Position numbers and translations under genes: made by a program
Assembly: GCA_963833425.1 (NCBI GenBank)
Contig: CAWHXP010000004.1
Span: 21,681-85,680 of the forward strand
Source of the DNA: an uncultured Methanosarcinaceae archaeon
GTDB lineage: Archaea > Halobacteriota > Methanosarcinia > Methanosarcinales > Methanosarcinaceae
Direction of reading: 5' to 3'
Length of the DNA: 64,000 nucleotides
Part shown: positions 4,439 to 7,771 of the stretch, piece by piece
Layout of the letters: each line of letters opens with the position of its first letter
Position numbering within the stretch: the stretch's first letter is position 1
Notes under the pieces: model-generated
What the model was told of the DNA's origin: nothing
Database searches by the model: none
Seen by the model: the letters and a program-made list of their open reading frames with translations, nothing else

Positions 4439-5287
4439 TTATATTTTCACCAGATGCTGCCTGTATATCATTTCAAGCTCGGCAAAGTCGTTCACTGGCG
4501 TTGGGATCACCAGCGAATCATTTTCCATTATCGCTTTTGCAAGGTTCCGAAATATTTTCGCTTCTAGTGAATCTGGGGAATGCTCCACAACAGGTTTCCC
4601 TTCCAGTTCACATGCCTGGATCACGGAACTCCGGGGGACAAACTGGACAAATGGGGTCCCCAGCTTTTTTGCAAAAGCTGGGATGACTGCATGCTCAAAT
4701 GCTTCATTACCATTGCTGTTGCAGATAATCCCTGCGAGGCCGGTATCCTCCCGCTTTGCGAGGCGCTACACCGCCCTAGCAATGTTGTTTGCAGCATAGA
4801 TACTCATAAAACCGCCAGAACAGATGAGATAAATTTCTTTTGCAAACCCTTCGCGGATAGGCATCGAGAATTCACTACATACGACGTCACCGAGGACATC
4901 GTAAATTGCCACGTCGATGTTGTAGGTCGAAAACGCCTTGAGGTCCTTTAGGATTTGCAGTGAGGTAAGCACACCTCGACCAGCATACACAATACCCGGT
5001 TCCGGTCCTCCCGCTTCGACAAGGTAGATCCGACTGGGTTATTTGAAGACTGGTTTGTTCAAATTTATTGCATATTCGTCTTTTCCTAACCTCAGCTGTT
5101 CTCGGTGCTCTTCCAGTACCGCGGGAATAAACTTTCCCTCTGGAAGGATCCTTCGTCGAATCTCTCTTTGGATCACATCCTACCTGCATTACCGTGTGCC
5201 CCATCGCATGTAATGCGGCAGACAGGTTTGAAGTTATCGTGCTCTTCACGATGCCCCCCCTTTGCCATAGATAGCGATCTGTCTCAT
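4439..5287 (-). pseudogene. NifH/BchL/CfbC-like nitrogenase iron protein homologue
   Basis: [58 protein letters not shown]. Two frameshifts, in-frame TAA (~5038) and TAG (4766), and the first cluster Cys reads Tyr. Confidence 0.9.
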
Positions 5288-5293
5288 ATGCCG

Positions 5294-6651
5294 TCACCAT
5301 TTTGCTTCATATCTTCTTTCTTTCGAACGCCATCCCATAGTCCACTCGTTCTGAACGCACTCGAATAGATTTAATATGCCTGTATATCCGAAGTATTCCC
5401 GATTGATCATCCTAAACTGGCGAATCATCCTAACTACCTCGACAACATAGGCCACGGGAAGTCCCTCACTGGCATGCCTTTCGATGGTGCTACCGAACAC
5501 AACCCGTGGCCTGACATCAAGTAGACTCTTCCGTGTTTTATACACGTCTGTTCCGTAAACGATTTTCGGATTGAGCCCGAGGCTCTGGAGTTCCAACTCC
5601 AGAAGTTCCCGACTCGGCTTCTGCGAGGTATACAAGGCAACAAGCTCCGGGGTCATCTCCATCTCCTCGGTGACAAACCGGACTAGAGGAATCCCGACTG
5701 TTGCATCGGCAACAATAGCTATCGGAGTCCGGTACAGAAACCTCGCCATCGGCCACTTACGTCGACAAGTTGCCATCACCATCCTTTCGCCTTCTGCAAC
5801 GATCTCCTCCACCTTTTTCACCACATCGAATCGCTCTCCTAGAACTGTCAGCCAAAGCTGCGTGTTTGTCATCCCTATTGGCAAGGGTATCCCTTTACAT
5901 ATCTACTCGATGTCATACTCGCAAAAAGGTAATCTGATGCTTTCTGACCAGCATCATGGCTCAGCAGGAAGGAGGGCTCAGCGGATGCGATGTTTTCGAT
6001 TTCAGAAATTGGAGTCTGGTGTGTGAGCGTGGCTACAACCTTAATGCCCATCCGATAAAGAACCTGTTTCACCCATGCCAGACCTGCTGGCCATGTCGGA
6101 TTGGCATTGGCATGGGGAGCTACAAGGCAGACAGAACCAGATACTTTATCTACGTCGTCTTTTACCAGCTTTTTTAGTATCGTATCCATCGCGATGTCGA
6201 TATCATCGTACTGCGATCCTCGGAACCCTGCACATTCAATCGGAACTAGTCGGAACTTCACTTCTGGCTGCAGGGCCTCGCATACCGCTACAATATAGTC
6301 GCCCACAATTTCGGGCCCACATACACTAAGCACGAAAAAGGCAGAGATCGAGAGATCTTTTACCTCCAGGATTGTGCGGGCAAGGATGTCCTCTCCACCA
6401 TACACGATCTCGTCCACGCAGAGCTTGGTACAGATGGTCATTGTTTCCATATAGTCGCACTCCTGCGAGGCAAATGCATTGTTGACTAGATACTCACATC
6501 CTTGCGGGGAATGAGCAAGGAGTGCAGAACGAGAGACTCCAAGTGCAGTCAGGGCGGCACCGTTGAAAGCACACCGAAGGTATGGGTCGGTGCGCGTCTC
6601 CGAGGAAGACGTTGATGGCCCAGCAGTTTCCTTAAAATTTCCTTGTTCCAT
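5294..6651 (-). pseudogene. NifK/BchB-like nitrogenase component-1 type oxidoreductase subunit
   Basis: RCAFNGA, HSPQGC, EIVYGGE, LSVCGPEIVGD, LPIG, RIA-like PIAIVAD, YFGYTG. Frameshift plus in-frame TAG near 5900-5925. ATG at 6651 has a purine-rich RBS and overlaps the end of the upstream gene. Confidence 0.8.
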
Positions 6652-7771
6652 AGAGCATCCCCTTAAACAATCGAGAGCGGAGGAGATCTTTGTTCTCAAG
6701 TGCCTGTCTGACTAGAGCGGAGATGTTCCTAATTCCCCGGAAGCCGTACTGGGGCTGAAACGATGGGTTCATGAGTGTTAAGTTCACCACTGGACAGGGA
6801 GGAAACCGGCCTGAATTCCCAAAGAAGATAGGGTTATCATATTCCTTAACAATCGCCTCTAGCTCGGCCTCGGTCTCTTTGGACGATCGAAGGCTCCCTA
6901 GCCGGAAGAGTCCTTTTGTCAGAATAATCTCCGGGTTAACCCCGGTTTCCAGGAGAAACTTGATGCTGGGCATACGTTCCTTGATTGTATATGGATGGAC
7001 GTTGATCACGACAGGATGGGCACCAAACTCTGCTGCCATCAGTGCATGGAAAGCGCTCGTATAGGCCCTGGAAATTCCGATATTTCTACAATAGCCGTTT
7101 TTTCGGAGAGAGCCTGTCTTAAATATGTAATTCCCGGTTCTACTTCCTGCATCTCTCGTTTAATCACTTTAATAGCTGCTGCCTCCATGCCAAGAGGTGT
7201 TGCCACGCCAAGCAGCCATTCCTTAGTAGCCTCAGGGCCGTAGGGCTGCCCAGTCTGGCTGTAAGGAATGCCGAAAACCGTTCTTGCATCAAGTCACCCA
7301 GCTTCTGTCCCCAGTCAAAGCACCCGGCAGCCAACCAACTTCTCTGCCTCGCGAGCAATGCTTTCGACGTCATCACCGATGATCCCGGAGCAGCAGCAAG
7401 AGAGAATGACGATGAGATTGGGTGGTACTTAGCGTATGCTTCCTTTACTGCTTCCAGTAGTTTTCCCTCACCCCCGTATGACATAGCTTTCGTCTAGCGA
7501 GGTGCAAGCTGTGGGTTCTAATGGAACTCCACGGATCTCGCAGCATTCCCGTGTCCTTACAAAATCTGACATGTACAGCGGACACCCGGTCGGACCGTGG
7601 ACCAGGGGAACTACATGACGGATCCCGCTGATGACGTAATAGGCTGTAAAAAAATTTGCACATTGGAGAGTGGGAAGCCTGAAGCTTGGGGATCATCTCT
7701 CCAGTTTCCACTTTTTCCATTAACTGCTGCAGATTACCGTGAAAAACTATGAAATCCTTTTCCTGTTTCAC
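6632..7771 (-). pseudogene. NifD/BchN-like nitrogenase component-1 type oxidoreductase subunit
   Basis: Reconstructed across at least four frameshifts: SPMCKFFTAYYVISGIRHVVPLVHGPTGC...RECCEIRG...YGGEGKLLEAVKEA...ILSCCCSGIIGDDVESIA...QPYGPEATKEWL...PQYGFRG. An internal deletion appears near 7320. Confidence 0.8.

Follow-up and report, generated by a model that had tools for sequence, protein, structure and literature searches.

What does a nitrogenase-like gene cluster represent when each of its genes is broken, and what would its intact relatives do? The question is raised by positions 4439-7771 of a 64,000-nucleotide stretch (the window) of contig CAWHXP010000004.1, from the genome of an uncultured Methanosarcinaceae archaeon (assembly GCA_963833425.1). 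A reading of the sequence by itself, hereafter the original prediction, had placed there three nitrogenase-like genes in the order D-K-H, the third for an Fe protein, and had described the copy as dead. We hold with high confidence that the operon at 4439-7771 is dead and is one copy of a D-K-H system that has spread horizontally; its family lies outside Nif/Vnf/Anf, CfbD and Mar and most likely consists of NifB-cluster reductases.

Three nitrogenase-like genes in a row

Translation of all three minus-strand frames of 4439-7771 gave pieces of a NifD/E-like, a NifK/N-like and a NifH-like protein. Gene limits were set by alignment to L047, the intact, collinear locus of a related metagenome-assembled genome (MAG), and bore out the predicted order and coordinates (Table 1). 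L-numbers denote loci returned by our genome scan; G000 is the window's own genome, and G071, G098, G124, G130 and G150 are other genomes of the same genus that carry the operon. The D-like motifs MCKF, HGPTGC, RECC and SCCCSGIIGDD and the K-like motifs CAFNG, HSPQGC and VCGPEIVGD were visible in the three-frame translation. In H the motif CDPK was visible, and one further motif emerged only on codon-by-codon reading against an orthologue; every motif named in the original prediction was thereby recovered.

Pfam searches found PF00148 in five of the six D/K fragments scanned (E 3.9e-37 and 3.6e-20 for the K fragments, with three D fragments weaker) and PF00142 in both H fragments (E 8e-31 and 3e-18). 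Two PF00148 subunits and one PF00142 ATPase are therefore encoded together, which places the operon in the nitrogenase superfamily. The window fragments scored far below every NCBIfam equivalog cut-off (nifD, nifE, nifK, nifN, vnf, anf, bch, cfb and nifH); the top NCBIfam match of a K-like fragment was NifE, at 86 bits. As predicted, no GGAA-N6-TTCC operator lies upstream of D, and the window's sole match (5124-5137) falls within H, no more than chance would give (1 found vs 1.23 expected). A promoter and terminator scan gave counts at the level of shuffled sequence.

The lesions are real decay

A lesion was counted only where G130, L047 and G150 agree among themselves and the window differs. 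By this rule D has six frameshifting indels (+1 at 7654, -2 at 7479, -1 at 7419, -287 at 7320, +2 at 7277 and -1 at 7047), and the 287-base-pair (bp) deletion, at 7319/7320, takes out the segment with the Cys275 equivalent (SWCFDWG in orthologues). K has one frameshift and one nonsense codon. In H there is a +2 indel inside the P-loop (about 5254), a +1 indel at 5153, and nonsense codons at 5041 (TCA>TAA) and 4768 (CAG>TAG); substitutions have also turned GIGCAGRG into GIVYAGRG, a Cys-to-Tyr change at the [4Fe-4S] ligand position, and GG into SE after DVVC. The methyltransferase gene downstream has a changed start ATG and a -1 frameshift at 4305. Relative to intact orthologues, D, K and H together hold nine frameshifting indels (one of them the 287-bp deletion) and three nonsense codons; inclusion of the methyltransferase raises the frameshifting indels to 10 and leaves the nonsense codons at 3, for 13 lesions in 4,302 bp. 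Six flanking genes compared with the same reference, L047, show 1 frameshift in 5,832 bp, a density ~17 times lower. The operon thus carries multiple frame-breaking lesions above the assembly background, as a pseudogene should.

We compared the window with Logan contigs from sequencing runs X1, X2, X3 and X9. Those of X1, made by another assembler, repeat the lesions: five listed records show 0 differences and span 4768, 5905/5921, 7419, 7479 and 7654, and records with 1 and 4 other letters span 5041/5153 and 7277. Contigs of related strains in X2 and X3 read past the deletion junction at 7319 into sequence that the window lacks; their loose ends, reverse-complemented, read ...CTCCGCAGCG..., the words that follow the junction in G130. 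At or next to 7419, 7479 and 7654, the X2 and X3 contigs also show length differences from the window that run in the restoring direction. One X3 contig of a related strain skips 87 bases of the D-like gene (7538-7626), which would be an in-frame deletion there. In the RNA run X9, contigs fell on the ATP-binding cassette (ABC) genes and a short part of the methyltransferase only, with none on D-K-H; they are only 93-99% alike and hence come from a relative.

Several points weigh against decay. The assembly is imperfect, with 80% completeness in 21 contigs, so that some 1-bp indels could be errors. gatE (window 11001-12903, minus strand) is split by one extra base near 12670; this single frameshifting indel in 1,902 bp, at 94% identity to L047, sets the background error rate of the window, and could stem from a fault in the assembly or from genuine damage to a presumably essential gene. 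Long intervals devoid of open reading frames are also frequent in the window. If X1 is the sample behind the assembly, as it may be, its agreement tests the assembler and not the biology or the sequencing platform. Finally, substitutions specific to the window lineage give no significant sign of relaxed selection (88 synonymous and 28 non-synonymous, against 81 and 17 in L047; Fisher p=0.24), so the decay must be recent.

Could the genes then be intact in the organism, with the lesions produced by sequencing or assembly? The low completeness of a 21-contig assembly and the frameshift in gatE, an essential-type gene, would fit such errors, as would the +1 at 7654, which falls in a T run, and one shared sequence context could give identical systematic errors in two copies of the operon. 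However, read errors do not typically take the form of a 287-bp deletion, of three nonsense substitutions, of 2-bp indels away from homopolymers or of substitutions at catalytic residues, the lesion density far exceeds that of the flanks, and the independent X1 contigs agree. We regard an artefact as very improbable. The lesions are real decay: the D-K-H copy in the window makes no enzyme, and the downstream methyltransferase is dead too. Frameshifts, stops, internal deletion and Cys-to-Tyr change all stood when checked against G130, L047 and G150.

A second dead copy in the same genome

A second broken copy lies on contig C3 and shares the nine frameshifting indels of D, K and H. This paralogous locus (G000:C3:549286-556530; L045 9287-16531) comprises ABC genes, D-K-H and an amidohydrolase gene. 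Over 4446-7726 the two copies differ by 6 mismatches (99.8% identity), whereas the ABC genes are 78-90% identical per 200-bp bin and the amidohydrolase farther on is 85% identical. The C3 ABC genes are fragmented, with no frame above 135 amino acids (aa), compared with 259 and 318 aa for their window counterparts; the C3 amidohydrolase (353 aa) is intact and the methyltransferase is missing. The rest of window 1-14000 has no second copy in the genome, so the duplication is a segmental paralogy and does not reflect a strain-level duplicate of the contig. Both variants are present in X1, whose contigs show five other letters (A>G twice, A>T, G>A twice); by kind, number and record range these agree with the C3 variants at 5098, 7210, 7225, 7228 and 7240.

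In neutral DNA, divergence is expected to be no slower than in the flanks, and here the neighbouring genes differ by about 15%. Judged by identity, the likeliest account of two nearly identical broken operons is therefore a recent gene conversion, by which one of the dead copies probably replaced the sequence of its paralogue.

Intact relatives are common and point to horizontal spread

We searched 150 other genomes of the same family, 34 of them of the same genus, for orthologues. K orthologues with 76-84% identity were present in 5 of the 150, all among the 34 of the genus; the frames are open in G130, G098 and G124 and split in G071 and G150. In G130, D (479 aa), K, H (283 aa) and the methyltransferase stand in a row. 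A search of 5.8 billion proteins listed 120 matches at 64-95% identity, some annotated 'nitrogenase component 1' or 'nitrogenase associated protein'; the hosts among these listed matches were Methanoregulaceae, Methanoculleus, Methanocella paludicola, Dehalococcoidia, Bathyarchaeota and Acidoferrales. From the genome scan came 80 loci, 74 of which (57-94% identical) were counted as family loci. Archaeal hosts of the 74 were Methanosarcina(ceae), Methanoregula(ceae), Methanolinea, Methanothrix, Methanolliviera and a Thermococci-labelled MAG, and the others were Chloroflexota (21 loci) and Acidiferrales. Bog, fen or peat is named in several of the MAG titles, among other sources. The shares found in runs X2-X20 were too small to serve as a guide to habitat.

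The intact family is thus common and strongly conserved in wetland methanogens and Chloroflexota. The original prediction had supposed that intact homologues exist but may be undescribed. They were found, in archaea and Chloroflexota at 57-95% identity, and no function is assigned to them; their sequences, however, are known, hundreds being public, and their class appears in the excerpted text of PMC3464626.

The D proteins of Methanoregula are 88-92% identical to that of G130 (L048, L051, L052, L058 and L105), as close as those of other Methanosarcina. The operon is also an island of G+C content: 49.6% vs 35.8% for the genome in the window's case, 51.4% vs 41.3% in G130 and 49.9% vs 37.8% in L047. 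Horizontal spread of the operon would be the simplest reading of these comparisons. Of eight Methanosarcina-type genomes with the operon, four hold it broken (G000, G071, G150 and L106) at differing sites, which indicates that it is dispensable, an accessory trait; some of these MAG lesions may be errors. In this tally L046, L049 and L050, which duplicate three loci with G-handles, were counted once. G150, the nearest broken relative, has no lesion in common with the window, so the two decayed independently.

A clade beside the E/N-like pairs of vanadium nitrogenase clusters

In a HMMER search of 1.84 billion representatives, the whole family made up one 50%-identity cluster; the next full-length proteins were 40% and 36% identical and the rest about 25-35%. 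None of the 65 representatives scanned reached any NCBIfam cut-off, and the intact D and K of G130 matched no NCBIfam family (NifD/VnfD/AnfD, NifK/VnfK/AnfK and NifE included) at E<=1e-60. The 36-40% relatives are a gene pair directly after vnfD-vnfG-vnfK, in G130 at L126 13327-14895 and 14847-16220. E/N-like pairs also follow vnfDGK in L120-L125, from Clostridium, Archaeoglobus, Telmatobacter, Ruminococcaceae and deltaproteobacterial loci.

We built a tree of 72 D/E- and K/N-type proteins (IQ-TREE, 'quick' search, LG+C20 PMSF), with support from the Shimodaira-Hasegawa-like approximate likelihood ratio test (SH-aLRT) only. Family D joined the VnfE-like proteins (support 91; 97 with P0121) and family K independently joined the VnfN-like proteins (99). 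Both stood apart from the grouping of the genome's own NifD and NifE with the VnfD and AnfD of G130 (99), from NifK/NifN/VnfK/AnfK (100) and from the genome's own CfbD, a long, remote branch. They also fell outside a 13-row clade (100) with P0252 and two further D-like genes of the window's genome, within which P0252 and its relatives form a clade of their own (99). P0252 scores 616 bits to PDB 9FMG_A, from a methylthio-alkane reductase complex, and G130 D scores 120. Family H formed its own clade beside NifH/VnfH, apart from the genome's CfbC, and stayed below the cut-offs for nifH (339 of 394 bits) and CfbC (332 of 402 bits).

These trees and scores mark the intact family as a clade of its own, discrete and strongly conserved. 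It falls outside Nif/Vnf/Anf, NifE, CfbD and the Mar clade, and its sister is the E/N-like pair of vanadium nitrogenase clusters. Nesting within Nif/Vnf/Anf, CfbCD or a characterised clade, which would have undone the original prediction, was not seen for Nif/Vnf/Anf, CfbD or the MarD clade. The predicted nitrogenase-like, non-canonical reductase held insofar as the family is outside the canonical clades, but it had not considered the vnfDGK-linked E/N-like pairs that turn out to be the nearest relatives. Two points weigh against this placement: the join of D to the VnfE-like proteins, at 91 and not starred, comes from a quick search with SH-aLRT only, and the named references in the tree were Nif/Vnf/Anf, NifE/NifN, CfbD and MarD-like rows, so the family might still belong with a characterised clade of Groups IV-A/D/E/F, such as Isr or Nfa.

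Three observations concern other members of the tree. The vnfDGK-linked E/N-like pairs group with nitrogenase-like clades and not with the genome's own NifE. Two further nitrogenase-like D/K pairs in the genome (G000:C16:87439-91492 and G000:C8:260505-262951, one with a divergently transcribed H gene) fall in the clade with the MarD-like rows, and the K-like frame on C8 is short, at 309 aa. Elsewhere in the same genome, C12 carries nifH..DKEN and C8 carries cfbCD.

We also compared the family with named systems. The vnfDGK-linked pair is sister to the family for both subunits, at 36-40% identity, has three cysteines at P-cluster positions per subunit and the Cys275 equivalent, and its representatives P0121 and P0122 likewise match no NCBIfam family, NifE included, at E<=1e-60. 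That pair, however, lies inside clusters with VnfH, PII, VnfD (911 bits, cut-off 823), VnfG and VnfK, in some loci with NifB and homocitrate synthase too, whereas the D-K-H family stands alone with its own H. CfbCD (Group IV-B, coenzyme F430) is also an archaeal nitrogenase-like system with an H-type ATPase, but has a single D-type subunit where the family has distinct D and K, and family H falls short of the CfbC cut-off and lies apart from CfbC in the tree. NifHDK, VnfHDGK and AnfHDGK share with the family the fold, P-cluster cysteines, Cys275 equivalent and Fe-protein motifs; the family differs in passing no equivalog hidden Markov model, in its missing His442 equivalent, in its position outside the NifD/VnfD/AnfD/NifE clade, and in its D-K-H order with no nifI, E or N beside it.

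Ligand residues, fold and gene context of the intact family

The numbering used here, with ligands Cys275 and His442, is that of A. vinelandii. Both ligand positions are also named in the excerpted text of PMC3464626. Intact D has Cys at the NifD Cys62, Cys88, Cys154 and Cys275 positions, and no family row has a His at or near 442; the Cys275 equivalent, C251, is invariant in the 52-sequence alignment. K keeps three Cys. Alignment to the genome's own NifD and NifK puts the P-cluster positions at HGPTGC, ACT and CCCSG in D and at HSPQGC, LCTKL and (A/V)CGPE in K. Four of the six cysteine motifs proposed as P-cluster ligands in the original prediction therefore hold; MCKF and CAFNG are conserved superfamily cysteines at other positions.

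The AlphaFold model (predicted local distance difference test, pLDDT, 82.8) had MarD 9FMG_A as its top Foldseek match (E 1.4e-25, template-modelling (TM) score 0.68). MarD, NifD, VnfD and NifE all gave TM 0.57-0.70, and the fold was rejected as a discriminator among them because the scores are about equal.

D, K and H are consecutive in that order in 42 of the 74 family loci, and many of the others stop at a contig edge. Our neighbour-gene scans covered recurring neighbour clusters. A NifB-like radical-SAM (S-adenosylmethionine) gene of 270-290 aa is present in 12 of the 21 Chloroflexota loci, in 10 of them no more than two genes downstream of H; against the nifB model TIGR01290 it reaches 255 bits (cut-off 344), with only the core domain covered. 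It occurs in 0 of the 53 other family loci, and the window's genome encodes an intact nifB at another site. A TPMT/TehB-like methyltransferase gene accompanies the operon in archaea, in 11 of the 74 loci and directly after H in 6, and its nearest solved relatives include thiol, halide and heterocyclic-toxin methyltransferases. Likewise in archaea, the permease of a DrrAB-like ABC-2 exporter stands directly before D in 4 loci and in the window. DUF169 is nearby in 3 of the 74 loci (L047, L055 and L105) and in the window. The checks of ligand positions and neighbourhoods that the original prediction had proposed for intact copies thus yielded a retained Cys275 equivalent, an absent His442, and a NifB-like neighbour in Chloroflexota.

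A NifB-dependent enzyme from a scaffold lineage?

Among characterised systems, one close comparison for such an enzyme is MarBHDK (Group IV-C; PDB 9FMG and 9D9U), likewise a two-component nitrogenase-like system with a cysteine equivalent to Cys275 and the best Foldseek match. The family has the order D-K-H(-B), in contrast to B-H-D-K in Mar, as the name marBHDK implies. In the excerpted text of PMC13753814, MarBHDK depends on a NifB-type maturase and both Cys270 and His429 of MarD are conserved. An equivalent of Cys270 is present in the family; that of His429 was not found near the C-terminal segment, where the alignment is uncertain.

One could therefore ask whether the family is a methylthio-alkane-reductase (MAR)-like enzyme that frees a thiol from volatile organic sulfur compounds in sulfate-poor wetlands. 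The Foldseek match to 9FMG_A, the shared Cys270/275 equivalent, the bog, fen and peat sources, and a neighbouring methyltransferase of thiol/halide type would suit it, and the excerpt of PMC13753814 links Group IV systems generally with sulfur genes. Yet the Foldseek scores for NifD, VnfD and NifE are nearly equal, the family clade is separate from the MarD-like rows, with 120 bits to 9FMG_A vs 616 for a true MarD relative, the His429 equivalent is missing from the alignment, and gene order differs. Moreover, within that excerpt, which deals with a set of bacterial genomes, MAR activity is confined to Group IV-C. We consider a MAR-like function quite unlikely.

A second alternative follows from the tree itself: the intact family may be a cofactor scaffold or maturase of VnfEN/NifEN type with its own H, on which a NifB-derived cluster would be assembled or carried on behalf of another enzyme. 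That the family's nearest relatives are of scaffold type weighs against a catalytic role and favours this alternative: D and K alike have the E/N-like pairs downstream of vnfDGK as their sister group, the K-like fragment in the window has NifE as its best NCBIfam match, the His442 equivalent is missing, and NifB-like genes adjoin the operon in Chloroflexota. The excerpted text of PMC3464626 (Dos Santos et al. 2012) describes pairs related to NifE/N, with Archaea among the hosts, that have Cys275 and three P-cluster Cys per subunit yet lack His442, and for which catalysis cannot be distinguished from biosynthesis. Intact orthologues show all of these residue features (the window copy has lost its Cys275 equivalent to the deletion), but differ from that class in context, for the cysteine synthase and O-acetylhomoserine sulfhydrylase neighbours given in that excerpt are not among the family's recurring neighbour clusters. 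Against a scaffold speaks the absence of VnfD/G/K-type neighbours from all 74 family loci (0/74), the corresponding neighbour clusters c16, c17 and c11 being confined to L120-L125. The family also occurs in Chloroflexota and in Methanocella paludicola, where the excerpted text of PMC3146512 reports no nifDK and only nifH homologues; the operon is self-contained (D-K-H, plus B in Chloroflexota), like marBHDK; and both subunits keep the full 3+3 Cys set. On balance a scaffold seems unlikely to us, though less so than a MAR-like enzyme.

The VnfEN-type sister, the NifB-like gene and the methyltransferase and exporter context together point to an L-cluster enzyme. Our tentative proposal, possible but short of probable, is that the intact family branched off the VnfEN-type scaffold lineage and became catalytic: a self-contained, NifB-dependent system that would hold an L-cluster-like [8Fe-9S-C] on a single cysteine, use its own Fe protein and reduce a small molecule, and that would have spread horizontally among wetland methanogens, Bathyarchaeota and Chloroflexota, often to be lost again. 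Most likely, going by residues and gene context, an H dimer with a [4Fe-4S] cluster would deliver electrons, driven by ATP, to a P-type cluster whose ligands are three Cys from D and three from K. From there they would reach a NifB-made [8Fe-9S-C]-type cluster on Cys251 of D, without a histidine partner, where a small substrate would be reduced. The methyltransferase and exporter neighbours suggest a small product that is methylated or exported; as a weak guess, the substrate might be a small molecule that contains sulfur or selenium or is otherwise toxic, and its product would be methylated, exported or both. It counts against such arguments from context that each gene other than D-K-H is present in a minority of loci.

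Features of the locus and its surroundings

Table 1. Features in and around the broken operon (window coordinates).
Feature	Position	Strand	Evidence or remark
D-like (alpha-type) component-1 pseudogene	6632..7771	-	Alignment to L047, Pfam; 6 frameshifting indels
K-like (beta-type) component-1 pseudogene	5294..6699	-	-1 frameshift at 5921; nonsense CAG>TAG at 5905
H-like Fe-protein pseudogene	4439..5287	-	2 frameshifting indels, 2 nonsense codons, Cys>Tyr
SAM-dependent small-molecule methyltransferase (TPMT/TehB-like), broken	3768..4399	-	Downstream of H; absent from C3 copy
Tract 99.8% identical to G000:C3 (6 mismatches, same lesions)	4446..7726		Probable gene-conversion tract
Intact ABC-2 exporter pair directly upstream of D	7963..9673	-	DrrB-like permease 7963-8742, DrrA-like ATPase 8717-9673
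ABC ATPase gene, short relic	3520..3705	-	76% identical to L047 ATPase; three 1-bp indels

The ATPase relic sits between the methyltransferase and an amidohydrolase gene (2105-3247) that is absent from the collinear L047. The DUF169 (COG2043) gene of the window lies near the operon at 541-1320 on the minus strand. Farther along, window 15953-64000 contains many stretches of 1-3.5 kb without an open frame of 100 aa, which fit either widespread gene decay or indel errors in the assembly.

What the broken operon points to

Methanogens have further nitrogenase-like proteins of unknown function, according to the excerpted text of preprint 10.1101/2023.10.20.563283. The excerpt of a 2026 review (PMC13474568) lists functions only for Groups IV-A, B, C and F and mentions no archaeal D-K-H system; it counts finding the functions of such systems among the field's greatest challenges. 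Our literature search found no paper that assigns a function to the D-K-H clade, although supplementary trees may hold the clade. By sequence the family is of a known kind, and what the present analysis adds is its scaffold-lineage sister group and its link with NifB.

The copy in the window is inactive. As a small side example, it shows a dead operon apparently homogenised with its paralogue by gene conversion; its main value is as a pointer to a nitrogenase-like branch without an assigned function, for which intact operons exist, such as those of L047 and G130. If these do encode a catalytic offshoot of the scaffold lineage, they would add another function to the nitrogenase superfamily beyond the known ones.

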